DNA of 64,000 nucleotides from Candidatus Nealsonbacteria bacterium (GTDB lineage: Bacteria; Patescibacteriota; Minisyncoccia; Minisyncoccales; UBA6532), in assembly GCA_016186485.1 (NCBI GenBank), contig JACPLN010000005.1:41256-105255 (forward strand), given 5' to 3'. Positions 2 through 44,699 of this stretch are shown here, piece after piece. Both the position numbers and the translations under genes were made by a program. Each line of letters starts with the position of its first letter. Within the stretch, counting starts at the first letter, position 1. Below the pieces are notes generated by a model. The model saw only the letters and a list, made by a program, of their open reading frames with translations. It did not search any database and had not been told where the DNA came from.

Positions 2-949
2 GGCGAGGGCGAAGTGGGCCAGGTAATCGCTGAAGCGCCTCTTCAAGGTGAAGACGAGGGCGAAGGCGAAGATCCGAATGCGGGGACGGAACCTGGCGAA
101 CACGGAATTGAAGAAGAGGCTTACAGGTTCGGGAAAGAGCTTTCAGAAAAATTTCAGCTGCCAAATCTTAAAGATAAAGGGAAGAAAATTCCTACCGATG
201 AATATATCTATGATTTAACCGATAGGCACCGGGGTTCGGGCCAATTCCTAGACAAACAAGAAACCCTGAAAAGCATAGTTGAAACCAATGTAATTCTGGG
301 CCGGGTTGACAAAGATAATATAGACACAACCCAAATGGTTGTTGGTCCTAATGACAAAGTTTACCGAGTTCTTTCAAGAGAAAAAGTTTGGAAATCCCAG
401 GCAGTAGTATTTTTCCTGAGAGATTACTCGGGTTCCATGTGGGGTGAACCTACCAAAGCCATATTAGCTCAACATATGATGATTTATGCTTGGCTGATAG
501 TTCAATATGAAAAAATGGTCATTCCAAGATTTATTGTTCACGATACCGAGGCCCAAGAAGTTTCGGTTGAGCATTATTTTAAGAGAACGGCCAACGGAGG
601 AACCTTGATTGCTTCCGGTTACGGGAAAATCAACGAAATCGTTGAAGGCGAAGGTTTAGCCAGAAATTATAATATCTATGTTTTCCAGGGCACTGATGGC
701 GACGATTGGGATGACGGTACTCAGTCTATTCCGGAACTTGAAAAAATGCTTAGTTATGTTAACCGTATTGGAGTTTGCGTTTTGAGACACCGTTTTTATG
801 GAAACAATGAAACGCCTTTTGAGAAATACGTGGGAGAGGGAAATATTCTGAATAGAAAGGATCTTTTCCGGATGCACGTTATGTCCTCAACGGATATTAC
901 CGAAGAAGAAAACATAGAAGCCTTTAAAAAACTTATCGCTCAAGATTAA
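2..949 (+). CDS. yeaH: YeaH/YhbH-family protein (DUF444, vWA-like part); 5' end outside window
   Basis: Frame open from window edge to TAA at 947-949; FFLRDYSGSM (DxSGS MIDAS-like) motif; first gene of a yeaH-spoVR-prkA triad. Confidence 0.7.
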   Translation, partial: GEGEVGQVIAEAPLQGEDEGEGEDPNAGTEPGEHGIEEEAYRFGKELSEKFQLPNLKDKGKKIPTDEYIYDLTDRHRGSGQFLDKQETLKSIVETNVILGRVDKDNIDTTQMVVGPNDKVYRVLSREKVWKSQAVVFFLRDYSGSMWGEPTKAILAQHMMIYAWLIVQYEKMVIPRFIVHDTEAQEVSVEHYFKRTANGGTLIASGYGKINEIVEGEGLARNYNIYVFQGTDGDDWDDGTQSIPELEKMLSYVNRIGVCVLRHRFYGNNETPFEKYVGEGNILNRKDLFRMHVMSSTDITEEENIEAFKKLIAQD

Positions 950-954
950 GGAAA

Positions 955-982
955 GAGCGTCGCTTGACGCTCCTTTTTATTT
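955..982 (+). terminator. Hairpin plus U-run between yeaH and spoVR (partial terminator/attenuator candidate)
   Basis: GAGCGTC-GCTT-GACGCTC stem-loop followed by CTTTTTATTT. Confidence 0.45.
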
Positions 983-1030
983 CTGTTAACTTAATCTAGG
1001 AAGAGTTCTTTAAAAAAGGAGATAGAAAAA

Positions 1031-2749
1031 ATGGAATTGATAGATCAGAGGACTAAAGGAATTATGGAAGAATGTAAAAGGAGAGCGAAAGCCGCGGGAT
1101 TAGAGGTTAATGGAGAAACGCTGGAATATATTATTACCAATCGTGAAGAGCTGGAACTTTCTGTCAAGGTTAATATTCCTACCCTGTATGACTATTGGGT
1201 TGATAACGTGGAAGTGGTTAAAAATAAATGGATTTACGATGCTTTTCCGCACAACCCATACGAGACAGTAGTCAACACCAGGCCCCCAATATCTTTCTAT
1301 AACGACAACAACCCGGATTGGCTCAATGTAATGATTTTCTATCATGTCTTGGGCCACATAGATTTTTTCCAGAACAATGTTTTTTTCAGAAAGACCTGGG
1401 ATGATGATTTCTGCGGGCAGGCTTTAGCAGATAAAAGGCTTCTAAATAAAATTCGCGAAGAGCTGGGAGAAGACAAAAGACAGGTTGATTATGTGATTGA
1501 GTTTGCCAGAGCCATAGATAATCTGGTGGGCTACTATCAAGAACTTGAGGAAGCCGAAGAAATTCAAGCCCAGAATATTTTTGGAACATTTTCTGAAAAA
1601 TCAAATTTCTATTTTGGCGAATTCTTAAGACGGCTTTATGACCAAAAACTGATTGAGTTAAAATTTTACTACGATGAAGTAGAGCGTTATAACCGCTGCA
1701 TAAAGCAATTTTCTGAAAAGCTGGGGGAAATCACTTTCTTTGACGACCATATTTTTAAAAGCAAGCTTCCCGAGTTCAACAGCGCTTTCAAAAAATATAA
1801 GGAGAAAAAGGAGAGTAAAACAAAGGCAAATGATATTCTTAAGTACCTTATGGAAAATTCCGAGTTCATAAACAGAGATAAGAACAAATGGATGAAAGAC
1901 GTTCTTGGGGTAGTAAGAAGGACCTCTCTCTATTTTCAACCTCAGTTTAGGGATAGAATTTGCAACGAAGGATGGGCAAGTTTTTGGCATCATAGGTTGT
2001 TCATAACCGACGAAAGAATCAAGGGCCATGAGGTAGATTTTGCCCTAGTTAATTCCAAAGTTTTAGTAGACCTAAGATTAGGGTTTAATCCATATATAGT
2101 TGGTATGCACCTTTTTGAGTTTATTGAAGAGCTGGCAAGAAAAGGAAAGCTTTCTTACGGTTTCCAGCTAATAAAAGACATTGAAGCAAGAAGACATTAC
2201 GACCAGAAATTAAAAGAAGACTTCGGGAAAAAGGTTTTGTTTGAAACGAGGAAAAATATTAATGATTTCATTCTGATTAACTTTCTTTCTGACGAAGACT
2301 TCCAAGACTTTGTAGACAAGTACAAATTGTTCGTGGCAGGGACGAGAATAAATCCTCAAAAGCCAGGCTTTGTCGATGTCTACATTAAGTCAAGGAATGG
2401 CAAGGAATACCGGGACTTTCTTAATAAATCCTTATATCATCCGCCCTATATCGTTATCAATCCCGAAAAGAAAACCAAAGAAGGCGAATTGTATCTCGAT
2501 CACGTTTACGAAGGCAGAACCCTGGTTACGAAATATATTCCGTCAGTTTTGTCCGGCCTGTCTTATTTTTGCGGCGGCGGAGTAGTGAAATTGGAGACAA
2601 CCGAGTTTGAGATGGAAAAAATTAATTATTGGGAAAGACTTCAAAATCCGGATCAAGAGACAGAATACGAAAAAGTCCGAGTGCTTTACACTTGTGAAGG
2701 GAAAAATATGAGTAGAAATACCTTGAGGAGAGAGAAGCGCAATGGATGA
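1031..2749 (+). CDS. spoVR: SpoVR/YcgB-family protein
   Basis: AAGGAG upstream of ATG; family-typical NEGWASFWH motif; 572 aa. Confidence 0.8.
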   Translation: MELIDQRTKGIMEECKRRAKAAGLEVNGETLEYIITNREELELSVKVNIPTLYDYWVDNVEVVKNKWIYDAFPHNPYETVVNTRPPISFYNDNNPDWLNVMIFYHVLGHIDFFQNNVFFRKTWDDDFCGQALADKRLLNKIREELGEDKRQVDYVIEFARAIDNLVGYYQELEEAEEIQAQNIFGTFSEKSNFYFGEFLRRLYDQKLIELKFYYDEVERYNRCIKQFSEKLGEITFFDDHIFKSKLPEFNSAFKKYKEKKESKTKANDILKYLMENSEFINRDKNKWMKDVLGVVRRTSLYFQPQFRDRICNEGWASFWHHRLFITDERIKGHEVDFALVNSKVLVDLRLGFNPYIVGMHLFEFIEELARKGKLSYGFQLIKDIEARRHYDQKLKEDFGKKVLFETRKNINDFILINFLSDEDFQDFVDKYKLFVAGTRINPQKPGFVDVYIKSRNGKEYRDFLNKSLYHPPYIVINPEKKTKEGELYLDHVYEGRTLVTKYIPSVLSGLSYFCGGGVVKLETTEFEMEKINYWERLQNPDQETEYEKVRVLYTCEGKNMSRNTLRREKRNG

Positions 2750-4904
2750 AACCCAAGAAGCCCTTGAGTTTTTGAAGATCGAGATTGAGGGTAAAGAGAA
2801 AAGGAAGATTTTGAGTTTTGAAGAATATCTTCAAATTGCCAGAACTGACCCACAAAGAGTTTTACGAAACATTTTTCAGCTGTTCCACGATATGGTGAAA
2901 ACCTATGTCGGCGAAGGAGAAAATGAACACCCTGACGATCCGGAATCCATAGGTTTTGTTAAGTACGATTGTTCAATGCTTTTTGCTGAAGGGAGGGAGA
3001 CTCCATTTTTTGCCGATAGGCTTTTTGCCAATAGATTCGTAAGGCAAGCCGAGAACTTGAGACGAGGATCGCAACAGAATAGGATTTATGTTTATGACGG
3101 TCCTCACGGTTGCGGCAAATCTACTTTTCTGAATAATTTTCTCCGAAAATTTGAGCAATATACTGCTACGAAAGAAGGACAGGTTTTTGAAATTTTCTGG
3201 CAGATTGAGATCGATGGCCAAAGGGTTGACGTTCCCTGCCCCAGCCATGATTACCCAATATTGATTATTCCGAAAAATTACCGGGCCGCTTTTCTGAAAA
3301 AAATTCTATCTGAAAGTCCTAAATTGAGGGATAAGTTTCTCCGCGAAAAAGAATACGAATGGATATTCAGAGAAGAAGTTTGCACCATCTGCAAATCTCT
3401 TTTCTGGGCCTTGCTTGATAAGCTTGGTTCGCCCGATAAGGTTTTAAGCATGGTTAAAGTCCGATCTTATGTATTTGACAGGCGCCTGGGGGAGGGCATC
3501 AGCATCTTTAATCCGGGCGATAAGCCCCTAAAAAAGACTTATTTTACCGATAAGCAGATTCAAGAAAAGCTGGACCAAGTTTTTGGAGGGAATTTAGTGA
3601 AGTACATATTTTCACAGCACGCTAAGACCAATAACGGATTTTATGTCCTAATGGACATCAAGTCTTATAACAAGGAAAGATTGTTGGAGCTTCACAACAT
3701 TATTTCAGAAGGCGTTCACAAAGTGGTTGGGCTGGAAGAGCGGATAAATTCACTCTTTATGGCTCTGATGAACCCCGAAGATAAGCAAGATATAGTGGGA
3801 GATGTGAAAGAAAATTCATTCCAGGGAAGAATTCAATACAACAAAATCCTATATGTGCTGGAGCCATCGACTGAAGTCAAAATTTACCGCAGTATTTTTG
3901 GAGGACAAATCGATTCGCGTTTCTTGCCCAGGGTTATGGAAAACTTCGCCAGGATAATAATTTCTTCCAGAATGAATATTGATTGCCCCCCGCTCAAAGA
4001 ATGGATTAAAGACGCGAAGAAATACAAAAAATACTGCGACGAAAACGGACTCTTGTTGAGGATGGAATTATATAGCGGAGTTATTCCGCCTTGGCTATCA
4101 GAAGAAGACAGAAAAAGTTTCATAGCGACAGTCAGGCGAAAACTGATTTCTTATGGGGAAGAGGAGGGGGGAAGAGGTTTTTCCGGCAGAGACTCAATCG
4201 GGTTATTCAGCGACTTTCTAAGTCGTTACGGATCAAAGCCAAAGCTGATCAATATGGGCAACGTCACCGATTTCTTTGAACAAAGAATAAGCAAGGGGCA
4301 GAAAAGCGAGGTGCCGTCAAACTTCATTAGTTCGCTTAACGACTGGTACGATTACGTGGTTTTGGGCGAAGTAAAAGAAGCTCTCTACTTCTACAACGAA
4401 AAGCAGGTTTCCGAAGATATCTTGAATTATCTTTGCGCCATTAATTATGACCTAGGGGCAAAAATGAAATGCAGATACACTGGTAAAGAGCTAGAGGTTA
4501 CAGTTGAATTTTTTAAACTGATATGCTCTTATGTTACCGGAACAGATATGGGTGAAGCTGGCGCATTAAAGTTCGCTCAGGAGATTCAGCAAAGATATGT
4601 AGAGATTGTTGCTCAAGACCCAGGCCAAAAGATCACCGAAACGGAATTATATCAAGAACTTTTCAAGTCTTATGTTAGGAATCTAAAGAAAAAAGTGCTT
4701 AACCCATTTCTTGCGAACAAGAATTTTAGGGAGGCGATTAAGCTTTTCGGGACTAAGGAATTTGAGACTTTCGACAGCAGGCTAAAAGAGCACGTAGCCT
4801 ACCTGATTAAGAATTTGATTAATAAATTCGGTTATACCGAACAGGGAGCCAAAGAAATTTGTCTCCACGTAATAGACAAGAAGCTAACGGAAAAATTTTC
4901 CTAG
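2742..4904 (+). CDS. prkA: PrkA/YeaG-family putative serine protein kinase (P-loop AAA-like N-domain)
   Basis: GPHGCGKST P-loop; 720 aa; ATG overlaps spoVR stop by 8 nt (coupling); triad context. Confidence 0.8.
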   Translation: MDETQEALEFLKIEIEGKEKRKILSFEEYLQIARTDPQRVLRNIFQLFHDMVKTYVGEGENEHPDDPESIGFVKYDCSMLFAEGRETPFFADRLFANRFVRQAENLRRGSQQNRIYVYDGPHGCGKSTFLNNFLRKFEQYTATKEGQVFEIFWQIEIDGQRVDVPCPSHDYPILIIPKNYRAAFLKKILSESPKLRDKFLREKEYEWIFREEVCTICKSLFWALLDKLGSPDKVLSMVKVRSYVFDRRLGEGISIFNPGDKPLKKTYFTDKQIQEKLDQVFGGNLVKYIFSQHAKTNNGFYVLMDIKSYNKERLLELHNIISEGVHKVVGLEERINSLFMALMNPEDKQDIVGDVKENSFQGRIQYNKILYVLEPSTEVKIYRSIFGGQIDSRFLPRVMENFARIIISSRMNIDCPPLKEWIKDAKKYKKYCDENGLLLRMELYSGVIPPWLSEEDRKSFIATVRRKLISYGEEEGGRGFSGRDSIGLFSDFLSRYGSKPKLINMGNVTDFFEQRISKGQKSEVPSNFISSLNDWYDYVVLGEVKEALYFYNEKQVSEDILNYLCAINYDLGAKMKCRYTGKELEVTVEFFKLICSYVTGTDMGEAGALKFAQEIQQRYVEIVAQDPGQKITETELYQELFKSYVRNLKKKVLNPFLANKNFREAIKLFGTKEFETFDSRLKEHVAYLIKNLINKFGYTEQGAKEICLHVIDKKLTEKFS

Positions 4905-10192: not shown

Positions 10193-11038
10193 ATGATAAT
10201 CGTTGACACCCACGCTCATTTGCAGTTCAGGGCTTATGACAAAGACAGGAACGAAGTTATAAAAAGGTGCCTAGATAAAGGCGTCTGGACAATTAATGTT
10301 GGCACGAATTACGAAACCTCAAAGGCCGCGGTTGAGCTGGCTAGAAAATGCAAAGAAGGGATTTTCGCCAGCGTCGGCCTCCACCCAATTAATTTGGATA
10401 CGGGATTGGTGAAAATACGCGTTGATCCTAACGAAGATAGCCATCCCGAAAAATATTTTGATTATGAAAAATACAGAGAACTTGCAAAAAATCCCAAGGT
10501 GGTGGCAATAGGGGAAGTGGGGCTGGATTACTATTGGAAGCCTAAAACGAAAGGAAGGCTGGAAGAATTTAAAAAAATGCAAAAAGAGTTGCTGGCCTTG
10601 CAGCTTAAACTAGCAAAAGAGCTTGACCTCCCCGTTATTTTCCACTGCCGAGTAGCCCACAGCGATCTCTTAGAGATCTTAAACTCAAATCCCAAATCCC
10701 AAACCCCAAAATTAAGGGGCGTAATCCATTCTTTTACCGGGAGCTGGGATGATGCGCAAAGGTTTTTAGCTCTGGGGTTTTACCTTGGGTTTAACGGCAT
10801 AATCTTTAAAAAAATAGAAGGATTAGATTTTGAAATTAACATCAAAAATACTCCGTTAAACAGGATGCTTATTGAAACAGATTGCCCTTATTTAACCCCG
10901 TCTAAAGAGAGCGGCCGCAACGAGCCAATTTTTATAAAACACATTATCCAAAAAATTGCTGATACAAAGGGCGTTAGTTGTGAGGAGGTTGGGGAGATTA
11001 CGGCCAAAAACGCCCATAAACTTTTCGGGGTACAATAA
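10193..11038 (+). CDS. tatD: TatD-family metal-dependent hydrolase/DNase
   Basis: N-terminal DTHAHL motif, GEVGLDYY, IHSF, ETDCPYL motifs. Confidence 0.85.
   Translation: MIIVDTHAHLQFRAYDKDRNEVIKRCLDKGVWTINVGTNYETSKAAVELARKCKEGIFASVGLHPINLDTGLVKIRVDPNEDSHPEKYFDYEKYRELAKNPKVVAIGEVGLDYYWKPKTKGRLEEFKKMQKELLALQLKLAKELDLPVIFHCRVAHSDLLEILNSNPKSQTPKLRGVIHSFTGSWDDAQRFLALGFYLGFNGIIFKKIEGLDFEINIKNTPLNRMLIETDCPYLTPSKESGRNEPIFIKHIIQKIADTKGVSCEEVGEITAKNAHKLFGVQ
10681..10713 (+). repeat. In-frame heptamer-like micro-repeat (CTCAAAT CCCAAAT CCCAAAC CCCAAAA) in tatD
   Basis: Period-7 G-free string encoding NSNPKSQTPKL. Confidence 0.6.
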
Positions 11039-11887: not shown

Positions 11888-14359
11888 ATGAGATATAATC
11901 CTCAGCTAATTGAGAAAAAATGGCAAAGAATTTGGGAAAAGACCGGGATTTATAAAACCAAGGATAGGGTCAAGGGCAAAAAGAATTTTTTTTGCTTGGA
12001 TATGTTTCCTTATCCTTCAGGGCATGGATTGCACGTTGGGCATTTGCATGGCTATGTCGGCTCGGATGTCGTTTCTCGTTATTACAGGATGCGGGGGTTC
12101 AACGTTTTGCACCCAATGGGTTTTGACGCCTTCGGCCTGCCGGCGGAAAACGCAGCCATCAAATTCGGGATACACCCTAAAGTTTGGACGTATAAGAATA
12201 TAAAAGATATAACTAAACAGTTAAAATCATTGGGAGCAATGTATGATTGGAAAAGGCTGATAATAACTTCAGAGCCGGATTATTACAAATGGACCCAGTG
12301 GCTCTTTTTGCAGCTTTATAAATCAGGCTTGGCTTACAGGCAAAATGTGCCGGCAAACTGGTGCAAGAACTGCAAAACCATTTTGGCAAACGAGCAGGTT
12401 GTTGACGGCAAATGCGAAAGGTGCGATTCCCGGGTCTTTCAGAAAAATATTGAGCAGTGGATGTTTAAAATCACAAGTTACGGGGAAGATTTGTTATCGG
12501 GGCTGGGTAATTTGGATTGGCCGGAGAACACAAAAACAATGCAGAGAAATTGGATAGGGAGATCGGAAGGATGGGAAATAAGATTCAAAATTCAAAATTC
12601 AGATCTCAAAACCACATCTCAAAATTCAAAATTTATTGAAGTGTTTACAACGAGGGCAGATACATTGTTCGGGGCTACTTATTTGGTGTTATCTCCCGAG
12701 CATCCAATTATTAAAAATCTTAAGTCTCAAATCGCAAATTTAAAATTCGTAGAAGAATACATAGAGGAAACAAAGAAAAAGACAGAAAGAGAAAGAATTT
12801 CTGAAGCAAAAGAAAAGACAGGGGTTGAGCTTCAGGGAATTAAAGCGGTAAATCCCGCCAACGGCAGAGAAATTCCTGTTTTCGTTGCAGATTACGTGTT
12901 AGGCGGTTACGGAAAGGGCGCCATTATGGCGGTTCCGGCACACGATCAAAGAGACTCCGATTTTTCTAAGAGACATAACCTGCCAATCATTAAGGTAATA
13001 AAAGCTGGCAGAGAGCGGTTCTCTGCTGAAAGGGCTTATGAAGGAGAGGGAATTTTGGTTAATTCCGGAGAGTTTGACGGCATGGATTCTATTAAGGCGA
13101 GAGATAGAATCGGAAAATGGCTTTCAGAGAAAGGTTTGGCGAAAAAATCGGTCTATTACAAACTTAGAGATTGGACGATTTCCCGCCAGAGGTACTGGGG
13201 GGCTCCGATACCGATGATTTATTGTAAAAAGTGCGGCTGGCAAACGGTGCCAGAGGAAGATTTGCCGGTTTTGCTGCCTCCTTTAAAGGATTTTAAGCCG
13301 ACCGAAGACGGCAAATCTCCTTTGGCTAGAGTTAATAAGTTTGTTGAAACCGCTTGTCCTAAGTGCAGGGGAAGAGCCAAGAGGGAAACCGATACTATGG
13401 ACACTTTTGTTTGCTCTTCGTGGTATTATTTTAGGTTTACCGACCCAAAAAATAAAAAGCAATTTGCTTCAAAAGAAAAAATAAAGATTTGGCTGCCCGT
13501 TGACATCTATATCGGAGGAGCCGAGCATACCGTTGGCCATCTTTTGTACTCAAGATTCTTTACCAGATTCCTGAAAAATAAAAAATATTTGAGTTTTTCA
13601 GAGCCATTTTTGAGGCTTTCGCATCCCGGAATCATTTTAGGTCCGGATAACCAAAAAATGTCAAAATCAAAGGGAAACGTTATTACGCCGGAAAGCGTTA
13701 CTAAAAAGTACGGCATGGATACTTTAAGGGTTTACGAAATGTTTATGGGCCCGTTTGGAGATTCCATGCCTTGGTCAACAGAAGGAATAGAAGGCAGTTA
13801 TAGGTTTTTGAAGAAACTGCAGAGATTAAACTCAAAACTCAAGTCTCAAAATTCAAAACCACCCGCTTCGCCAAAGCTTCAGCGAGGCGAGCAATTCAAA
13901 AGTCAAAAATTAGAGAAATTATTACACCAGACAATAAAAAAAGTAAGCGATGATATTAAGAATTTTAGATTCAATACCGCTATCTCGGCTTTGATGATTT
14001 TGGTTAATGAATTGCAGAAAGAGAAACAGTTAACAGTTAACAATTATCAATTATTGCTTAAACTTTTGGCGCCTTTCGCTCCTCATCTGGCAGAAGAATT
14101 ATGGTTGCCTTACGGCAAGTCGGTCCATCTTCAGCCTTGGCCGAAATACGATCCAAAATTGGTCAGAGAAAAAGAAACCACCCTAGTTTTGCAGGTTAAT
14201 GGCAAGGTAAGAGACAAGATTGGGGTTGAAATTGGCATTTCTGAGGAAAAAGCTAAAAAGCTTGCAATTTCCAGCCAAAAAATTAGAAAATGGATAGAGG
14301 GGAAAAAGGTGATAAAAATAGTATTCGTACCGAATAAATTAATAAATATAGTAATTTAA
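11888..14359 (+). CDS. leuS: Leucyl-tRNA synthetase
   Basis: PYPSGHGLHVGH (HIGH), KMSKSKGN (KMSKS), editing-domain TTRADT motif; 823 aa. Confidence 0.95.
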   Translation: MRYNPQLIEKKWQRIWEKTGIYKTKDRVKGKKNFFCLDMFPYPSGHGLHVGHLHGYVGSDVVSRYYRMRGFNVLHPMGFDAFGLPAENAAIKFGIHPKVWTYKNIKDITKQLKSLGAMYDWKRLIITSEPDYYKWTQWLFLQLYKSGLAYRQNVPANWCKNCKTILANEQVVDGKCERCDSRVFQKNIEQWMFKITSYGEDLLSGLGNLDWPENTKTMQRNWIGRSEGWEIRFKIQNSDLKTTSQNSKFIEVFTTRADTLFGATYLVLSPEHPIIKNLKSQIANLKFVEEYIEETKKKTERERISEAKEKTGVELQGIKAVNPANGREIPVFVADYVLGGYGKGAIMAVPAHDQRDSDFSKRHNLPIIKVIKAGRERFSAERAYEGEGILVNSGEFDGMDSIKARDRIGKWLSEKGLAKKSVYYKLRDWTISRQRYWGAPIPMIYCKKCGWQTVPEEDLPVLLPPLKDFKPTEDGKSPLARVNKFVETACPKCRGRAKRETDTMDTFVCSSWYYFRFTDPKNKKQFASKEKIKIWLPVDIYIGGAEHTVGHLLYSRFFTRFLKNKKYLSFSEPFLRLSHPGIILGPDNQKMSKSKGNVITPESVTKKYGMDTLRVYEMFMGPFGDSMPWSTEGIEGSYRFLKKLQRLNSKLKSQNSKPPASPKLQRGEQFKSQKLEKLLHQTIKKVSDDIKNFRFNTAISALMILVNELQKEKQLTVNNYQLLLKLLAPFAPHLAEELWLPYGKSVHLQPWPKYDPKLVREKETTLVLQVNGKVRDKIGVEIGISEEKAKKLAISSQKIRKWIEGKKVIKIVFVPNKLINIVI
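12584..12633 (+). repeat. In-frame heptamer micro-repeat block 1 in leuS
   Basis: TTCAAAA/CTCAAAA units encoding KIQNSDLKTTSQNSKF. Confidence 0.7.
12713..12747 (+). repeat. In-frame heptamer micro-repeat block 2 in leuS
   Basis: AAAATCTTAAGTCTCAAATCGCAAATTTAAAATTC encoding KNLKSQIANLKF. Confidence 0.65.
13827..13910 (+). repeat. Composite in-frame insertion in leuS: heptamer repeats flanking a GC-rich palindrome
   Basis: Heptamer-like strings 13827-13859 and 13893-13910 flank GCTTCGCC...GGCGAGC (13864-13891); encodes LNSKLKSQNSKPPASPKLQRGEQFKSQKL. Confidence 0.65.
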
Positions 14360-16637: not shown

Positions 16638-16661
16638 GTGGAATATGTTAAGAAAATATAT

Positions 16662-17657
16662 ATGGCAAGAACGCCAAAAATTGTTTGTATAGGAGGGGGG
16701 ACAGGCACTTTTACGGTGCTGTCCGGGTTAAAAAAATACAATGCCGATCTCTCTGCCATAGTGACAATGGCAGACGACGGGGGATCATCCGGCATTCTTA
16801 GAGACGAACTCGGTGTTTTGCCCCCGGGAGATGTCCGCCAATGCCTAATAGCGCTGTCCGAAGAAGACCTTCTGTTAAGGAAGCTTTTTAATTACCGTTT
16901 TGGCTTAGGGCCGTTTTTGGGCCACAGCTTTGGCAATATTTTTATGGCTGCGATGGAAAAATCAACAGGCAGTTTTGACAAAGCGATAGAAAAAGCGGCA
17001 AAGGTCTTAAATGTCAAAGGCGAAGTGATACCCGTAACTTTGGATAAAGTAAGGCTGGTGGCAAAACTTGAATCGGGAAAAGAAATCGTTGGCGAAAAAA
17101 ATATTACAAAATCGCATCTTCTCTCAAGGCAGAAAATAAAGAAACTTTATTTGAAACCAAAGGCAGATCCAAACCAAAAAGCAATTAAAGCAATTAAAGA
17201 AGCCGATGTTATTGCGATAGGGCCGGGCAACCTTTATTCAAGTATTATTCCAAATCTTTTAGTTGAGGGAATACCGGAAGCCATTAGAAAATCTAAAGCA
17301 GTTAAAATTTACAATTGCAACCTAATGACAAAATTCGGCCACACCGACGGTCTAAACGTTAAAGATTTCGCTCTCGTCATTGAAAGATATCTTGGCGAAA
17401 GAGTTTTAAACTACGTAACTTATAATACAAAAAAACCACCCGCCGCATTTTTAAAGAAATACGCAAAAGAGGGCGGATTTGTTGAATGTCAAGACTTCAA
17501 AAATCAAGAAAATAAGTTTGTCGGCGCGGACTTAATATCAGACAAAATTTATGAGCAGGATAAGGCTGACACTTTTTTGCAAAGAACTCTTATTAGGCAT
17601 GATCCGGATAAATTAGCAAAGCTGTTAATGAAGCTATGTCCCGTAGTGAAAATTTGA
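16662..17657 (+). CDS. yvcK: YvcK/CofD-like (UPF0052) gluconeogenesis-factor family protein
   Basis: IVCIGGGTG...TMADDGGSSG motifs; last 5 codons and the TGA stop lie inside the MITE-like element. Confidence 0.8.
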   Translation: MARTPKIVCIGGGTGTFTVLSGLKKYNADLSAIVTMADDGGSSGILRDELGVLPPGDVRQCLIALSEEDLLLRKLFNYRFGLGPFLGHSFGNIFMAAMEKSTGSFDKAIEKAAKVLNVKGEVIPVTLDKVRLVAKLESGKEIVGEKNITKSHLLSRQKIKKLYLKPKADPNQKAIKAIKEADVIAIGPGNLYSSIIPNLLVEGIPEAIRKSKAVKIYNCNLMTKFGHTDGLNVKDFALVIERYLGERVLNYVTYNTKKPPAAFLKKYAKEGGFVECQDFKNQENKFVGADLISDKIYEQDKADTFLQRTLIRHDPDKLAKLLMKLCPVVKI

Positions 17658-17778
17658 CATTTCTTGACGAGTTATGAAAAAACAAACTACGAGGGTATAT
17701 CGCTAATTATTAATTTATAATAAGGAATTACAGCGAGTTTTGGCGAAATTAACTCGTTGTCAAATTTCTACTACGGGG
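17639..17778. mobile_element. MITE-like hairpin element, copy 1 (140 bp)
   Basis: Shares near-identical ends with 34140-34314; imperfect terminal inverted repeats; flanked by TATG on both sides. Confidence 0.7.
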
Positions 17779-17779
17779 T

Positions 17780-19045
17780 ATGCAGGCAGTAATTTTGGCA
17801 GCTGGCCAATCATCAAGGTTTTGGCCGCTCAATTACCAGAGAAAATCCTTAATACGAGTTTTGGGAAAACCTCTAATTTTTTATACGGCAGAAGCTCTAA
17901 AAAAACTTGGAATCAAAGAAATTATTATAGTTCAGGGCCAAGAAAGAGACGCAGAGAAATCCCTTTCGGGGCTTGGAATCAAAAATATACGTTACGTTGT
18001 TCAGTCAAAATCCTTGGGAACCGGAGACGCGCTTTTGAGCGCTGGAAAGCTGATAAAAAACGATTTTGTGCTTTTGGGTCCAGCCAAGGCAGACCTATCT
18101 CTTTATTTGCCGAGCATGCTTAAGAGATTTCAGAAGACAAAGGGGAAGATTGTTTTTTTGGGGGCAAAAACTAAAAGGCCGGAAGATTTTGGAATGGCAA
18201 GATTGAAAGCAGGCAAGATTATTGAGATTGTTGAAAATCCAAGGTCCAAAGACAGGCATTCTGACATAAAGACAAGCGAGCTTTATTTTATTCCAAAAGA
18301 TTTCGTATCCTGCCTAAAGAAGATTAAAAAATCGGAAGACAGTTTGATCGGGGCCTTTAATCTTTTTATCAAAGACAGGGGGGGAGAATTGGTAATAGCA
18401 AAACAGAATCCGCTTTCTCTCAAATACCCTTGGGAGGCATTAAGAACAATGAATTTTTTACTTAATAGCAAGAATCTGGAAAACAAAATTTCTTTAAATG
18501 CCAAAATATGCAAAAATACGGTAATAAAAGGCAATGTTTTTATAGATAGCGGCGCGGAAATCGGCGACAACACCGTTATTTTTGGCCCTTGTTACGTCGG
18601 CAAAAACTGCAAAATCGGCGCAAACAACGTAATCCGGGGGCCGGTAAATCTGGAAGAAGAAACAATCACCGGAGCTTTTTCAGAAATTAAAAACTCTCTT
18701 TTTCAGGAGGGCAGCCATATCCACTCGGGATATTTTGGAGATATGGTTATTGGCAGAAACTGCCGTTTTGGAGCAGGATTTGTTTCTGGAAATAGAAGGC
18801 TAGACAGAGGAGAAATCTTTTCTATGGTAAAGGGCAAAAAAATAGGGACGGGATTGACGTACTTCGGAGGAGCAATAGGCGACAGTTCCCGTTTTGGAAT
18901 ACACGTTTCAATGATGCCGGGAGCCCTTATCGGATCTGACTCCAACATTGGACCGCATTCTTTGATATTGGAAAATATTCCCGATAACGCTGTTTTTTAT
19001 AATAAATTTAACTCCGTAATTAAGAAAAATGACAGAAAAATCTAG
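17780..19045 (+). CDS. Sugar-1-phosphate nucleotidyltransferase with C-terminal left-handed beta-helix domain (GlmU/ST0452-like)
   Basis: MQAVILAAGQSSRFWPL NTP-transferase signature; hexapeptide-repeat-rich C-terminus. Confidence 0.65.
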   Translation: MQAVILAAGQSSRFWPLNYQRKSLIRVLGKPLIFYTAEALKKLGIKEIIIVQGQERDAEKSLSGLGIKNIRYVVQSKSLGTGDALLSAGKLIKNDFVLLGPAKADLSLYLPSMLKRFQKTKGKIVFLGAKTKRPEDFGMARLKAGKIIEIVENPRSKDRHSDIKTSELYFIPKDFVSCLKKIKKSEDSLIGAFNLFIKDRGGELVIAKQNPLSLKYPWEALRTMNFLLNSKNLENKISLNAKICKNTVIKGNVFIDSGAEIGDNTVIFGPCYVGKNCKIGANNVIRGPVNLEEETITGAFSEIKNSLFQEGSHIHSGYFGDMVIGRNCRFGAGFVSGNRRLDRGEIFSMVKGKKIGTGLTYFGGAIGDSSRFGIHVSMMPGALIGSDSNIGPHSLILENIPDNAVFYNKFNSVIKKNDRKI

Positions 19046-26526: not shown

Positions 26527-28569
26527 TTATTTTTGCGGCAGACCGGGACTATCACAAGATTTACTGGAGCACTTTATTTTTTTGCTTCTAGTTTCAACCA
26601 ACAGAGAACCGCATTTTGAGCATTTTTCGCCGGTGGGTTTTTCCCACAGGGCAAAATCGCATTTCGGGAAGCGGTTGCAGCCATAGAAAAGTTTGCCTTT
26701 CTTGGTTCTTTTTTCAACAATTTCACCTTGCAGGCATTTCGGGCATTTTACCCCCAATTTATTCTGCGGCAAGGACTCCGTGTAGTTGCATTTTGGGAAA
26801 GTTGAGCAGGCGTAGAATTTGCCGAATTTACCAAGCCTTATAATAACTTCAGCTCCGCATTTCGGGCATTTTTTTCCAGTTTTTTCCTGGGCCATCTCTT
26901 TTTTTGAAACCTCTTTATATTTTTTCTCAAGATTTTCTGCGAAGGGACCGTAAAAGTCTTTTAAAACCCTTACCCATTCTTCTTTTCCTTCGGAAACGTT
27001 ATCAAGGTTTTCTTCCATCTTTGCGGTAAACTGAATATCAACAATTTTTGGGAAGTGCTCAACCAGAAGATCGTTTACCGCAAGACCAATTTCAGTAGGC
27101 TTGAACTTTTTATTTTCGTCTTTTTCTATATAGTTTCTTTCTTGGATGGTTGAAATAATCGGAGCATAAGTAGAAGGCCTGCCAATGCCATTTTGTTCAA
27201 GGGCCTTAATAAGAGTCGCTTCGGTGTATCTGGCCGGCGGTTGGGTAAAGTGCTGGGAAGGCGTTAATTTTACAAGATCTAATATTTCATTGGCTTTAAG
27301 GAACGGCAGTTCTGTTTCTTCAAATTTTATCGGATAAACTTTAAGAAAACCGTCAAACCTCAAAACAGAACCATTGGCTTGAAAGACATGGTTTTTGGCT
27401 TCAATTTCTATTTTGGTTGAATCAAATCCGGCCCGGCTCATTTGAGAGGCGATAAATCTCCGCCAGATTAGATCGTAGAGCTTGAGCTGAGTTTCGTTCA
27501 GCTTGCAAGAGGACGGAGTTTTATCCGGATAGCTTGGCCTTATTGCTTCGTGGGCTTCTTGGGCTCCCCTGGCTTTGGTTTTATATTTTCCAAAAAACCC
27601 CGGCCAATAATTGTTTCCGTAGTTTTCAATAATGAATTTTTTCGCGGCAGACAGCGATAGATCAGAAAGGTTAAGGGAGTCGGTTCGGTGGTAGGTGATA
27701 AGCCCTTTTTCATAAAGGTTTTGAGCGATGCTCATCGTCAATCTTGCCGGAAAGTGAAGCTTCTTCCAGGCTGCCTGCTGGAGGGTGCTTGTGGTAAACG
27801 GAGGAAAGGGATTCCTTTTTATTTCTTTTCTTTCAATGCCTATTATTTTGTATTCCGCTCCATCCAAGTCCTTTATTATATTTTCCGCCTCCTCTTTTGT
27901 TTTAATCCCTAGTTTAGGAATTAATTTCTCGTCTTTTCTAATTAAAGTTGCCTCAAACTCATCATTCTTGAGATTTGAGATTTGAGATTTGAGATTTGCG
28001 ATTATGCTCCAGTATTCTTGAGGTTTAAAGTTCTCTATTTCTCTTTCCTTTTCCACCACCAGCCTTACAGCTACCGATTGCACTCTGCCGGCAGACAAGT
28101 GTCTGGCAATCTTTTTCCACAGGAAAGGAGAAAGTTTGTATCCCACAATCCTGTCTAGGATTCTTCTCGCTTGCTGAGCATCAACCAGGTTTTGGTCTAT
28201 GCCGCGAGGGTTTTTTAAAGAATCTTTAATTGCCTGTTTGGTTATTTCATGGAATACGATTCTTTGGTAATTTTCCGGATTTAATATTTGCCATAAATGC
28301 CAGCTGATAGATTCTCCTTCGCGGTCTTCGTCGGTAGCGAAAATAAGAAGATCGGCTTTTTTCGCCTCTTTTTTAAGCGACTGGATAATTTTCTTTGATT
28401 TTGCAGGAATGACATATTTTGGTTCAAAGTTATTTTCAACCTCAACGCCTAATTTGTCTTTGGGCAAATCCCTAACATGGCCATAGGAAGACAAGACCTT
28501 GTATTTAGGCCCAAGAAATTTTCCAATAGTCTTTGATTTAGTTGGCGATTCAACTATTACTAAATTCAT
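26527..28569 (-). CDS. topA: DNA topoisomerase I
   Basis: TOPRIM start MNLVIVESPTK, active-site region ITYHRTDS, three C-terminal CxxC...CxxC zinc ribbons. Confidence 0.95.
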   Translation of the reverse strand: MNLVIVESPTKSKTIGKFLGPKYKVLSSYGHVRDLPKDKLGVEVENNFEPKYVIPAKSKKIIQSLKKEAKKADLLIFATDEDREGESISWHLWQILNPENYQRIVFHEITKQAIKDSLKNPRGIDQNLVDAQQARRILDRIVGYKLSPFLWKKIARHLSAGRVQSVAVRLVVEKEREIENFKPQEYWSIIANLKSQISNLKNDEFEATLIRKDEKLIPKLGIKTKEEAENIIKDLDGAEYKIIGIERKEIKRNPFPPFTTSTLQQAAWKKLHFPARLTMSIAQNLYEKGLITYHRTDSLNLSDLSLSAAKKFIIENYGNNYWPGFFGKYKTKARGAQEAHEAIRPSYPDKTPSSCKLNETQLKLYDLIWRRFIASQMSRAGFDSTKIEIEAKNHVFQANGSVLRFDGFLKVYPIKFEETELPFLKANEILDLVKLTPSQHFTQPPARYTEATLIKALEQNGIGRPSTYAPIISTIQERNYIEKDENKKFKPTEIGLAVNDLLVEHFPKIVDIQFTAKMEENLDNVSEGKEEWVRVLKDFYGPFAENLEKKYKEVSKKEMAQEKTGKKCPKCGAEVIIRLGKFGKFYACSTFPKCNYTESLPQNKLGVKCPKCLQGEIVEKRTKKGKLFYGCNRFPKCDFALWEKPTGEKCSKCGSLLVETRSKKIKCSSKSCDSPGLPQK
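27970..28004 (-). repeat. In-frame heptamer micro-repeat in topA: (AAATCTC)x4 perfect plus one degenerate unit on the sense strand
   Basis: GAGATTT x4 at 27970-27997 on the + strand; encodes ANLKSQISNLKN. Confidence 0.85.
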
Positions 28570-33794: not shown

Positions 33795-34133
33795 ATGACT
33801 TGCGTTTTTTGCGAAATTATCAAGAAAGAGGCGAAGGCCGAGATAGTTTATGAAGACGAGAAAATATTAGGTTTTAAAAATATTCATCCCGAAGCCCCAG
33901 TTCATTTGCTTTTTGTTCCAAAAAAACATATACAATGGAATGACGAATTCAATGAAAAAGATTTAGAGCTTTTATCCAAACTTATATCCGCCGCAAAAAA
34001 GGTTGCCGCTGAAATAAAGATTAATGATGCCTATAAAATGATTTTTAACGTGGGCAAAACCGGGCACATCCTTCATATCCATTTGCACCTTTTAGGCGGA
34101 TGGGAAAACGATGCGCCGCTTCATAATATTTAA
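33795..34133 (+). CDS. HIT-family nucleotide hydrolase (HinT-like)
   Basis: CVFCEI start and HIHLHLLGG histidine triad. Confidence 0.85.
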   Translation: MTCVFCEIIKKEAKAEIVYEDEKILGFKNIHPEAPVHLLFVPKKHIQWNDEFNEKDLELLSKLISAAKKVAAEIKINDAYKMIFNVGKTGHILHIHLHLLGGWENDAPLHNI

Positions 34134-34139
34134 AATATG

Positions 34140-34314
34140 CCCCGTAGTGAAAATTTGACATTTCTTGACGAGTTATGAGAAAAACAAACTACGAGACATA
34201 TGGTTCATTATTATATTATTAATGAGTAATTGCAGCGAGTTTTAGCGAAATTAACTCGTTGTCAAACTTCTACTACTAGCGAAATTAACTCGTTGTCAAA
34301 CTTCTACTACGGGG
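34140..34314. mobile_element. MITE-like hairpin element, copy 2 (175 bp, with internal 34-bp tandem duplication)
   Basis: Ends near-identical to copy 1; flanked by TATG at 34136-34139 and 34315-34318; duplication units 34244-34277 and 34278-34311. Confidence 0.7.
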
Positions 34315-34315
34315 T

Positions 34316-34537
34316 ATGCCGCTAGAAATTAAAAAAAGAGAAAGAGAAAATATCCAGGGCTTGCTTTACCGCTTTAAAAAAGCCATTCAAGGGAGCGGTA
34401 TTTTGCTGCGCGCCAGAGAAGGCTCTTTTAAGAGAAGGTCAAAGAGCAAAAGCGCCAAGAAAAAGTCAATTTTAAGAAGATTAGAGGCGAATAAAGAACA
34501 CGAAAGGAAAAGGAAATTTGAAAAACCAAATGCTTAA
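34316..34537 (+). CDS. rpsU: 30S ribosomal protein S21
   Basis: 73 aa, basic; LLYRFKKAIQGSGILLRAREGSFKRRS resembles the S21 core. Confidence 0.75.
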   Translation: MPLEIKKRERENIQGLLYRFKKAIQGSGILLRAREGSFKRRSKSKSAKKKSILRRLEANKEHERKRKFEKPNA

Positions 34538-35416: not shown

Positions 35417-36637
35417 ATGCAAAAAGCTAATTTAATTACCGCTTTGGATATTGGTACTAGTTCAATTAAGGGAGTTTGCCTTTTGAAGAATGGCAAATCC
35501 AATAGTTTGGAATTGGCGGCTTCTGCCCAGCATCCTTCTTTTGGGGTAAGAAGGGGGGTTGTCGTCAGGGTAGAAGAGGTTTCAAAGATTATAAATAATA
35601 TTTTAGAGCAGCTGGAAAACCAGTCCGGCCAGAAAATTGAAAGCGTTTTTGTAAACATCGGCGGCAGCCATATTTTTACAATGAATTCTTCTGGTTCCGT
35701 TGTTGTTTCAAGAGCAGATCAAAGAATTTCCCAGGAAGATGTTGATAGGGTGGTGCAAGCCGCTCAAACATTTTCTTTGCCTTTCAATAAAGAAATATTG
35801 GATATTTATCCAAAAGAGTTCACCGTTGACGGAGAAAAGGGGATTAAGGGTTCTCCGTTGGGAATGCAGGGTTTGAAGCTTGAAGCCCAGGTTTTAGCCA
35901 TTGGCGCTTTTTCTCCATATTTTAAAAACTCAACCAGCGCGGTTTTAAATTCCGGCCTTCAAATTTTAGATATTATTCCTTCACCGGTAGCGACGGCCAG
36001 AGCGGTTTTAAGCCCACAGCAAAAAGAGTTGGGTACTTGCGTTATAGACATAGGGGCCGGCACGACAGATGTCGCCATCTACAAAGAAGGAGACTTGATG
36101 GGGGCAGCCGTTTTGCCAATAGGTTCGGATCATATTACCCACGATATTGCAGTATGGCTGAAGACGGACATAGAAGCGGCAGAAAGAATAAAAATAGAAT
36201 TCGGGACCTGCGACCAATCCTCCAGTAAAAAGGAAAAAATAAAGGTGTCAGGCGAAGATAACAATTTGGTGTTTTCCAGAAAAATGCTTTCAGGAATTAT
36301 CGTCGCAAGGATTACCGATATTTTTTCCGAGGTCCAGAAAGAGATTAAAAATAATTTCCAGGGCGAAATTTTGCCGGGAGGAATAGTTCTCACCGGCGGA
36401 GGATCAAAATTGCCGAAAATCGTTGAATTGTGCAAAAAAGAGTTGAAGCTTCCTTGCAGGCTTGGGTTCCAGCAGTACGTCAGAGAAGCAGAGAAAGATT
36501 CTTCTTTAAGCTGCGCCTACGGGTTAGCTTTGTGGGGATTTGATTCGCAGGATGGGTTAGATCGGTCAGACCTTACAACTTTCGGAAAAGAGGTATGGAA
36601 TAGGTCCAAAAATTTTTTCAGGAATTTTATTCCCTAA
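35417..36637 (+). CDS. ftsA: Cell division protein FtsA
   Basis: Actin-fold motifs ALDIGTSSIK, IDIGAGTTD, LTGGGSKL; adjacent to ftsZ. Confidence 0.9.
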   Translation: MQKANLITALDIGTSSIKGVCLLKNGKSNSLELAASAQHPSFGVRRGVVVRVEEVSKIINNILEQLENQSGQKIESVFVNIGGSHIFTMNSSGSVVVSRADQRISQEDVDRVVQAAQTFSLPFNKEILDIYPKEFTVDGEKGIKGSPLGMQGLKLEAQVLAIGAFSPYFKNSTSAVLNSGLQILDIIPSPVATARAVLSPQQKELGTCVIDIGAGTTDVAIYKEGDLMGAAVLPIGSDHITHDIAVWLKTDIEAAERIKIEFGTCDQSSSKKEKIKVSGEDNNLVFSRKMLSGIIVARITDIFSEVQKEIKNNFQGEILPGGIVLTGGGSKLPKIVELCKKELKLPCRLGFQQYVREAEKDSSLSCAYGLALWGFDSQDGLDRSDLTTFGKEVWNRSKNFFRNFIP

Positions 36638-36643
36638 AAAACA

Positions 36644-37579
36644 ATGTTAACAAAGATAAAAACAATTGGCGTCGGGGGAGCGGGCGGAAACGCATTAAGC
36701 AGGATGATGAGCCGAAAAATCCGCGGCGTTGAAATGATTGCGATAAATACCGATGAGCAGGATTTAAAAAAGGTCAGGGTCCACAAAACCTTGAGAATAG
36801 GCAGGAAGCTGACAGAAGGATTGGGGGCCGGAATGAATCCTGAAATCGGCAGATTGGCGGCAGAAGAAAACAAAGATGAAATATCCCAGATTATTCAGGG
36901 AACAGATATGCTTTTTATAACCTGCGGACTTGGCGGAGGAACGGGATCCGGGGCGGCTCCTGTTGTCGCCGAATTAGCCAAAAATCAGGGTATTCTGACC
37001 ATAGGAGTTGTTACAAAACCATTTTCTTTTGAAGGATTGCAAAGAATGAGGATTGCAAACGCCGCCTTAGAAAAATTAAGAGAGAAAGTTGACGCTCTTT
37101 TGGTAATCCCGAATGATAGAATCATTTCCTTGGTGGGCCAGGATACCACTTTAATGTCCGCTTTTTTAGCATGCGATGATATTTTACATCAAGCAGTGCA
37201 GGGGATTTCAGACCTAATTTTGGTTCCGGGAATAATCAACGTTGATTTTGCCGATGTCAAGTCAATAATGCAAAAGGCGGGGAGCGCCATATTGGGCGTT
37301 GGAAAATCAAAAGGGGAAAGGAAGGTGGAAAACGCAGTTTTGCAGGCAATTAACTCTCCTTTGCTGGAATTCTCTATAGATGGAGCAAGAAGAGTGCTTT
37401 TTAACGTATCCGGAGGCAGCGGTTTGAGCTTGGCTGATGTGGACCAGGCGGCAAAAATCATTACAAAAACCGCAGATAAAGAAGCAAAAATTATTTTTGG
37501 CGCAACAAAAGATTCAAAATTAAACGAAGACGAAATAAAGATAACGGTTATTGCCGCCTGCCTGCCTGAAAACCGCTGA
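36644..37579 (+). CDS. ftsZ: Cell division GTPase FtsZ (core domain only)
   Basis: GVGGAGGNA, GLGGGTGSGAAP tubulin signature; 311 aa, ends right after the globular core. Confidence 0.9.
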   Translation: MLTKIKTIGVGGAGGNALSRMMSRKIRGVEMIAINTDEQDLKKVRVHKTLRIGRKLTEGLGAGMNPEIGRLAAEENKDEISQIIQGTDMLFITCGLGGGTGSGAAPVVAELAKNQGILTIGVVTKPFSFEGLQRMRIANAALEKLREKVDALLVIPNDRIISLVGQDTTLMSAFLACDDILHQAVQGISDLILVPGIINVDFADVKSIMQKAGSAILGVGKSKGERKVENAVLQAINSPLLEFSIDGARRVLFNVSGGSGLSLADVDQAAKIITKTADKEAKIIFGATKDSKLNEDEIKITVIAACLPENR

Positions 37580-43748: not shown

Positions 43749-44699
43749 ATGAGATATTTTATTTTAGCCGTTTTAATTATTGGCATTTCCTTTTCCTATT
43801 TCTTTTTTGGTTCAGCTAAAAGGGCCGATAAAATAGTTTGGGGAGTTAATTTTTCCCAAAAACAAGCCGAAAATCTGGGGTTGGACTGGAAAGAGACGCT
43901 TTCTTTTTTATTGTCAGACCTCGGGGCGAGGAACTTTAAAATCGCAGTTTATTGGGATTTAATTGAACAAAAGGAAGGAGAATATCGTTTTGAAGATTTG
44001 GATTGGCAGATTCGGGAGTTGGGAAAATATGGAGCAAAAGCAATTTTGGTTGTTGGCAGGAAATCTCCCAGGTGGCCCGAATGCCACGAACCTAGTTGGG
44101 TTCGAAATCAAATCTCAAATCTCAAATCTCAAATATTACTAGAATACCTTAAAGAAGTTGTTAATAGATACAAAGATTCTGGAGCGGTTTGGGCATGGCA
44201 GGTGGAAAATGAACCATTCTTAAAATTTGGGCAGTGCCCTTGGCCGCCAAACGAAGAACTTTTGAAAGAAGAAGTCAGTCTAGTTAAATCTCTTGATAAT
44301 AGAAGACCGGTAATCGTTTCAGCAAGCGGAGAGTGGTCTTCTTGGTTCAAGGAAGCAAGAATCGGAGACATGGTCGGGATTACAATGTACAGAACCGCTT
44401 GGTTTGAAGATTATCAAAGACAGATAAAATATCCTTTCCCGCCAGTTTTTTACTGGTTGAAAGCCCAGTTGATAAAAACATTTTTTCAAAAAGATGTTTT
44501 GGTTATTGAATTGCAGGCAGAGCCGTGGAGGGAATCCATTGGCCTTAGAGAAATTCAAAAAAATATCGCCTTTGCCAAAAAAACCGGTTTTGACAGATTC
44601 TATTTTTGGGGAGCCGAATGGTGGTATTGGCTAAAGACAAAGAAAGGAGATCCGGGGATTTGGGAGGAGGCTAGAAATACGTTTAGAGAAAATATATAA
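43749..44699 (+). CDS. Membrane-anchored clan GH-A-like glycoside hydrolase (putative)
   Basis: N-terminal anchor; WQVENEP (NEP acid/base motif); (beta/alpha)8-like length. Confidence 0.45.
   Translation: MRYFILAVLIIGISFSYFFFGSAKRADKIVWGVNFSQKQAENLGLDWKETLSFLLSDLGARNFKIAVYWDLIEQKEGEYRFEDLDWQIRELGKYGAKAILVVGRKSPRWPECHEPSWVRNQISNLKSQILLEYLKEVVNRYKDSGAVWAWQVENEPFLKFGQCPWPPNEELLKEEVSLVKSLDNRRPVIVSASGEWSSWFKEARIGDMVGITMYRTAWFEDYQRQIKYPFPPVFYWLKAQLIKTFFQKDVLVIELQAEPWRESIGLREIQKNIAFAKKTGFDRFYFWGAEWWYWLKTKKGDPGIWEEARNTFRENI
44103..44137 (+). repeat. In-frame heptamer micro-repeat in GH gene: (AAATCTC)x3 perfect plus flanking degenerate units
   Basis: CGAAATC AAATCTC AAATCTC AAATCTC AAATATT; encodes RNQISNLKSQIL. 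Confidence 0.85.

Follow-up and report, generated by a model that had tools for sequence, protein, structure and literature searches.

Among the systems closest to the repeats described here, the Correia elements (NEMIS) of Neisseria, of about 100–155 bp, are short, abundant non-coding elements with terminal inverted repeats (TIRs), often co-transcribed with their neighbours and often located near promoters and gene starts, which form long RNA hairpins through their arms; they are found in Neisseria only, have unrelated arms of 26–27 bp, an IHF site and parts of outward promoters, duplicate TA (2 bp) at the target, and RNase III cleavage has been described for them. REPINs and the related REP-BIMEs, which depend on RAYT transposases encoded by a gene that such repeats usually flank, are inverted doublets of hairpin repeats carrying GTAG, the conserved tetranucleotide of REP sequences; they are also abundant, non-coding and placed at intergenic junctions, mostly with no transposase beside them, and Y1 transposition, as in IS608 and REP elements, leaves no target duplication and inserts beside a fixed tetranucleotide. 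Miniature inverted-repeat transposable elements (MITEs) of the IS5 group duplicate a roughly palindromic 4-bp target, YTAR, and IS5-type ends begin with GG or GA, while IS1380 elements, as collected in ISfinder, end in CC and make duplications of 4–5 bp. The genomes of the Patescibacteria (candidate phyla radiation) are tiny and streamlined, and little mobile DNA is usually attributed to them. Here we report on two repeats found in a 64-kb stretch of DNA (contig JACPLN010000005.1), hereafter the window, from a metagenome-assembled genome of the patescibacterium Candidatus Nealsonbacteria, an origin borne out by a protein match at 100%. Both are very probably copies of a MITE, that is a non-autonomous TIR transposon making a 4-bp target duplication, which belongs to a family occurring in Patescibacteria.

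Copy 1 occupies positions 17639–17778 (140 bp) and copy 2 positions 34140–34314 (175 bp). Each copy is flanked on both sides by TATG, at 17635–17638 and 17779–17782 in the first case, and at 34136–34139 and 34315–34318 in the second, exactly where an earlier note, made from the sequence alone, had placed them. As that note had also stated, the ATG contained in the right-hand tetramer opens the next open reading frame (ORF): ATG 17780–17782 starts an NTP-transferase gene (17780–19045, 421 aa) and ATG 34316–34318 a 73-aa bS21-like gene (34316–34537). On the other side, the left TATG of copy 1 lies inside the 3' end of the CofD gene (16638–17657, plus strand), the TGA stop of which (17655–17657) is supplied by the element itself, and the left TATG of copy 2 starts 3 nt past the TAA stop (34131–34133) of a HIT gene (33795–34133). 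The 73-aa gene had been named rpsU; in favour of this name, its 19 best PDB matches are all bS21 and it lies upstream of yqeY, the usual position, but the E values are weak (0.015–0.16) and the product has no Pfam match, so we call it bS21-like only.

Both copies carry 20-bp TIRs (yCCCGTAGT-GA/AG-AAATTTGAC). In copy 1, the left arm (17639–17658) is of type B (yCCCGTAGTGAAAATTTGAC), the right arm (17759–17778) is the reverse complement of type A (CCCCGTAGTAGAAATTTGAC), and the stem extends further by the pairing of ACGAGTTA with TAACTCGT. The identity of the left 38 nt of the two copies holds if counted from 17640/34141, the first base of copy 1 being T and not C. The interiors, previously regarded as diverged, are in fact 86% identical with a 1-nt indel. 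Copy 2 shares its arms and interior with copy 1 and is longer because its right arm region contains a perfect 34-bp tandem duplication at 34243–34310 (34243–34276 and 34277–34310). In the whole window the 20-nt arm patterns match at these four arm positions and at the one duplicated arm, and nowhere else (0.00 matches expected by chance in 100 shuffles), and no copies beyond these two were found.

Several relatives allowed us to compare the two loci with their uninterrupted form. Both copies sit at tight gene junctions, CofD/NTP-transferase and HIT/bS21-like, and both junctions are empty in syntenic relatives, six in all, as expected for the mobile insertion that had been proposed. In two of them (L151 and L152), which share the order GlmS-CofD-NTP-transferase, the CofD and NTP-transferase genes overlap by 10–13 nt and the element is absent. 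If the element is taken out of the window together with one TATG, the restored CofD ends in ...LAKLLMKLCRQ*, to be compared with ...LAKLIIKLCNQ* and ...KLCK* in the orthologues; with copy 1 in place the protein ends in ...KLCPVVKI*, which replaces the ancestral ...KLCRQ*, the element providing the last five codons and the stop. In the other four (L154, L156, L157 and L158), with the order HisRS-HIT-(bS21-like)-YqeY-YbeY, the HIT stop and the bS21-like ATG are separated by 4–7 nt with no element, compared with 182 nt in the window. Copy 1 was also found, identical, in a second assembly, on a Logan contig (L150) that begins inside the left arm of the element.

The contribution of copy 1 to CofD recalls the Rickettsia palindromic elements (RPE), a likeness extended by the fact that one frame of the arm is open (PRSENLT...) and that some copies are apparently read through within ORFs. 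At one metagenome locus (L004) an 83-bp copy at 1264–1346 and its duplication (87 nt together) lie in frame in a 563-aa ORF (987–2678, minus strand); the protein belongs to no Pfam family, the contig may be chimeric, and an insertion within a domain was not confirmed. In L092 (748–1296) the element gives a methyltransferase its C-terminus.

The two window copies are part of a much larger family, hundreds of copies having been recovered from other genomes. A degenerate arm pattern matched 29 stretches in 24 Patescibacteria assemblies, the labels of which include Nealsonbacteria, Parcubacteria, Uhrbacteria, Buchananbacteria and Minisyncoccales, and at least 120 metagenome stretches, with the caveat that metagenome contigs may be chimeric at repeats (L004, L050 and L076 share half-flanks). 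Local pairing of the arms gave, among the matches listed, 139 elements of 42–197 bp, most of them 74–82 bp long with the mode at 76–79 bp, and smaller length classes near 100, 126–158 and 171–197 bp. The core form is non-coding, about 76 bp long, and has near-invariant ends (CCCCGTAGTrrAAATTTGAC), 39 of the 40 arm columns being at least 90% conserved in 74 core elements. Two positions consistently distinguish one arm from the other (GTAGT-AG-AAA versus GTAGT-GA-AAA), so that the stem contains an A.C mismatch and a G.U pair. Copies adjoin unrelated genes and are found in both orientations, and many of the longer elements consist of one element nested in another, a separate duplication flanking each. 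In no other fetched locus was the interior of the window copies found, so that these copies represent a lineage-specific subfamily, inserted at least twice. Neither the family nor its arm sequences were found described in the searchable literature; Rfam 15 gave no credible cover of the element at E up to 10 and, by gathering score, only tRNAs and an L10 leader reached threshold in the window and 16 loci.

The limits of the element were set by a systematic test of boundaries and duplication lengths, which placed them at yCCCGTAG...CTACGGGG. With these ends, 67 of 112 unique copies show a direct duplication of 4 bp without mismatch; each of the other boundary offsets, and of the other duplication lengths over 2 bp, gave at most 25 of 112. 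A duplication of 2 or 5 bp, or termini shifted by one base, were ruled out by this test together with the target logo, and a Correia or IS630-type MITE was rejected, since 4 bp is the length favoured by the boundary test and targets centred on TA hardly occur. As in the Correia elements, the repeats are short, abundant, non-coding and hairpin-forming, and often lie near promoters and gene starts; they differ in the 4-bp duplication, in the termini (CCCCGTAG), in the core of about 76 bp and in that no outward promoter was seen.

The logo obtained from 62 oriented sites with a perfect duplication is Y-W-W/G-R, position 1 being C or T and position 4 A or G in 61 sites each; A seldom immediately precedes the target, T seldom immediately follows it, and the flanks are weakly palindromic. 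Some of the sites used for this and for the context statistics below are orthologous and not independent. Fourteen different tetramers are duplicated, the commonest being TTTA, CTTG, TTGA and their complements, followed by CATA/TATG and CAAA. Thus, the proposal of a 4-bp TATG target duplication was right as to the length, and TATG is just one of the permitted targets of a family that recognises Y-W-W-R. All 16 oriented TTTA sites have the element in the same orientation. The pyrimidine at position 1, the purine at position 4, the 4-bp duplication and the roughly palindromic target are shared with the IS5-group MITEs; the target centre, however, is here TT, AA, TG, CA or AT and not TA, and the ends start with CCCC.

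Two genomic contexts are conspicuous among the insertions. The TTGA/CTTG-class duplications lie at the 5' edge of a TTGnnn-N16-18-TAnnnT motif in 25 of 31 cases, in comparison with 13.5% of the same tetramers in the intergenic DNA of the same loci (p = 6e-17), a background that rests on a crude definition of intergenic DNA, made from ORFs of 90 aa or more. In these sites the duplicated copy keeps the −35 hexamer intact beside its −10 box. Of the 8 distinct TATG sites, 7 have an ATG that begins a reading frame of 35 codons or more; at 6 of the 8, a long upstream ORF on the same strand stops in the interval from 16 nt before to 19 nt after the start of the element, which identifies them as operon junctions. 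Insertion at start codons, for which the earlier note had considered a preference possible, does recur at the TATG sites, but the commonest context of the family is the −35 hexamer. With 94% of the window coding, part of this pattern must be due to survivorship. We propose that a transposase of the DDE type, encoded elsewhere, would move the copies in trans with 4-bp staggered cuts, and that the surviving copies would be those whose duplicated 4 bp rebuild the signal that the insertion split, either the TTGA/CTTG of a −35 hexamer or a start ATG, because genomes of about 94% coding density would limit survivors to such sites. In addition, the enzyme may prefer TTGAC, a motif carried by both arms.

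An alignment of 68 core elements, made by sequence alone, showed that the arms form a 19-pair stem and that two inner hairpins are kept through compensatory changes (GTGTTTTG/CAAAACAC, GTGTCCCGAC/GTCGGGACAC and CCCCGCC/GGCGGGG). All 12 pairs of the inner helices have changes on both sides, and the doubly changed cells amount to 133, against 36 ± 5 in shuffles and 26–48 in controls with slid partners. This covariation exceeds what a plain double-stranded binding site needs and suggests that a single-stranded form, be it an intermediate of transposition or the transcript, is under constraint. Covariation had been named beforehand as a sign that would speak for a conserved regulatory RNA instead of a mobile insertion; it is indeed present in the inner hairpins, and it stands alongside clear evidence of mobility without replacing it. 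In about 7 of 75 elements (re-oriented by their interior; the arm conservation given above refers to the 74 core elements) the inner segment is inverted relative to the arms, as would result from recombination between them.

As for the window copies as RNA, the full elements are predicted to fold into long hairpins, of −44.9 kcal/mol for copy 1 (z = −6.1) and −51.3 kcal/mol for copy 2 (z = −5.6), which pull the flanking UAUGs into the base of the stem in both cases. No promoter or terminator reading out of the copies towards the downstream genes (plus strand) was seen, so they are presumably transcribed inside operons. For most window genes the 25 nt leading up to the start codon contain no Shine-Dalgarno-like motif, and the upstream regions are A/U-rich; because of this general lack of Shine-Dalgarno motifs, the insertions removed no ribosome-binding site. 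Several genes have a TATAAT-like box about 10–15 nt upstream of the start, which suggests very short or absent leaders. On the basis of the folding, the arms would pair into a long hairpin burying the downstream AUG in its stem, and this stem would set the AUG beside the stop of the upstream gene, which lies 19 nt inside copy 1 and 6 nt before copy 2. A terminating ribosome could then melt the base of the stem, by which translational coupling would be kept; alternatively, the AUG might be released through cleavage of the long duplex by RNase III, in the way of the Correia elements.

Taken with the inverted termini, a duplication of fixed length, here 4 bp, suggests, by what is established of transposon mechanics, a cut-and-paste enzyme whose cuts are staggered by 4 nt. 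A mechanism of the REPIN/RAYT type makes no duplication and is disfavoured for this reason. With regard to the type of enzyme, piggyBac has CCC termini and, besides TTAA, rarely duplicates TAAA, TCAA or TATG, and IS1380 is its prokaryotic relative (PMC10813416). The family described here shares with them the 4-bp duplication and inverted repeats starting with CCC, and TAAA, TCAA and TATG are all found among its targets. TTAA is, instead, absent from the 65 perfect duplications, which argues against piggyBac proper, and no transposase of any family was found with these termini in the window and in about 1 Mb of flanks. A piggyBac/IS1380-like mobiliser, suggested by the CCC termini and the 4-bp duplication, might be considered as a lead, and the resemblance is not evidence of membership.

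All the features of a MITE that could be tested were found, apart from a known autonomous partner, and the non-autonomous, hairpin-forming element inserted at start codons that had been predicted agrees with the empty sites, the 4-bp duplication, the number of copies and the nesting. Nevertheless, several observations weigh against this explanation. The absence of a transposase from the window, already remarked in the earlier note, was borne out by the lack of any Pfam transposase domain in its 55 ORFs of at least 90 aa. A scan for autonomous partners, based on the terminal 8-mers at a spacing of 0.4–4 kb and requiring a 4-bp duplication, found none in about 1 Mb of flanks. Viral contigs gave 0 matches to the family, and the clustering of 794 ORFs from the loci revealed no protein family enriched beside the elements, which adjoin housekeeping families only. 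Furthermore, the nearest relatives are only 57–73% identical in the flanking proteins, so that the empty sites testify to the ancestral state and are not recent polymorphisms. The covariation of the inner hairpins is unexpected for a purely selfish transposon of double-stranded DNA and hints at a constraint at the single-stranded or RNA level. Target choice and selection, alone or together, could account for the enrichment at −35 boxes, and all the effects on expression described above are predictions. In the search for an autonomous partner, fuzzy arm matches paired at no more than about 200 bp; the solo arms are diverged, truncated or nested copies, and no long ORF lies behind the one in L011. 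An all-against-all DNA comparison of the loci found no repeated segment of the size of an insertion sequence (IS), and it brought to light unrelated hairpin inserts.

The explanations that compete with a simple MITE were evaluated against the same data. The element could have a mobile origin and now be kept as useful, either as a module upstream of −35 boxes, for instance an A/T-rich tract resembling an UP element or a regulator site, or as a hairpin of the operon RNA that controls how the downstream gene is translated or processed. The extremely precise and enriched placement at −35 hexamers, the almost invariant arms around variable interiors, the covarying inner hairpins and the recurrence of operon-junction insertions at unrelated genes would all agree with it. 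On the other hand, the orthologous sites of the relatives work without the element, the window copies emit no promoter- or terminator-like signal, and purifying selection in a 94%-coding genome would generate the same pattern; we consider this explanation rather unlikely as a whole. An equally doubtful but more far-reaching possibility is that the element is not a deletion derivative of an IS at all but a self-contained module of three helices, the shape of which would be read as single-stranded DNA or RNA by an unlinked and unrecognised enzyme that TTGAC steers to sigma-70 −35 hexamers, and that copies would act across Patescibacteria as portable regulators, close to promoters and at operon junctions. 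A domesticated piggyBac/IS1380-like protein is one candidate for such an enzyme, a new type of protein another.

Much less probable, in our opinion, is a REPIN-like hairpin doublet moved on single-stranded DNA not by a DDE enzyme but by a single-copy Y1 transposase (RAYT or IS200-IS605-type). The likeness is real: each arm contains GTAG, the doublet is inverted, abundant and non-coding and lies at intergenic junctions, its hairpins covary as if the single-stranded form mattered, and the lack of a transposase beside any copy fits one unlinked enzyme of housekeeping type. What separates the family from REPINs is the direct duplication of 4 bp at 67 of the 112 copies, of a sequence that varies from one target to the other; moreover, no HUH/Y1 domain was found in the ORFs of the window. 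Finally, we can hardly give credit to a vertically inherited cis-regulatory RNA, such as a leader or attenuator, since, despite the strong RNA structure, the covariation of the core and the position immediately 5' of start codons, the same junctions are element-free in the six syntenic relatives, direct duplications flank the element, its neighbours are unrelated genes in both orientations, it nests in itself, and no Rfam match was obtained at E up to 10.

If the repeats are MITEs, as we favour, the family shows how a transposon can flourish with almost no neutral DNA, the duplication itself repairing the −35 box or the start codon that was interrupted. Its traits are unusual in combination: a very small size, ends that stay near-invariant across distant lineages, covarying hairpins, placement precisely at −35 boxes or start codons, and a missing transposase. 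Together, the near-invariant 20-bp ends, the covarying hairpins and the absence of any visible transposase mark out a search for the missing enzyme, and the copies offer natural test cases for Shine-Dalgarno-free initiation downstream of very stable hairpins. There are also practical consequences for genome projects, because repeats of this family break contigs, as for the contig of the second assembly that starts inside copy 1, and may create chimeric ones, and because they can alter the annotated ends of genes, as for the C-terminus of CofD.

Other small elements were observed in the same loci. Nested sister subfamilies (arms CCCCGTAGAAGAATTT...) occur in L045, L019, L075, L101 and L144, inserted in or beside the small GAAG-loop hairpin of the host element, and their duplications (GAAG, CGAA and CTCC) are unlike Y-W-W-R; this nesting may reflect a target choice directed by structure. 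Between the bS21-like gene and yqeY, two of the relatives with an empty HIT junction (L154, 2587–2787, and L158, 2560–2752) carry a non-coding stretch of about 200 nt whose long inverted repeats are unrelated to the MITE family; the window has no gap at this junction. Operon junctions in these bacteria thus seem to be colonised by other hairpin elements too. An insert of about 85 bp with inverted repeats, directly upstream of an ATG, is present in L013 (4884–4966) and absent from L094 (1187–1191), two contigs that are 94–97% identical, and represents a presence/absence polymorphism of a different small element.

The window also contains heptanucleotide-type repeats, such as (AAATCTC)n, at 10682–10711, 12582–12631, 12710–12739, 13829–13858, 27968–28003 (minus strand) and 44105–44134. 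They lie inside housekeeping genes unrelated to each other, those of TatD, LeuRS (three times) and topoisomerase I and an unannotated ORF, and are read in frame as short peptides rich in K, S, Q and N (for example NLKSQISNLK); they look like a second repeat, compatible with coding, that has spread through the genome. Among the remaining genes, positions 14–4904 hold a DUF444/SpoVR/PrkA trio, a stress module of the yeaH-ycgB-yeaG type, FtsA and FtsZ are encoded at 35417–37579, and two full-length MreB paralogues, at 50132–51139 and 55526–56575, are 4.4 kb apart.

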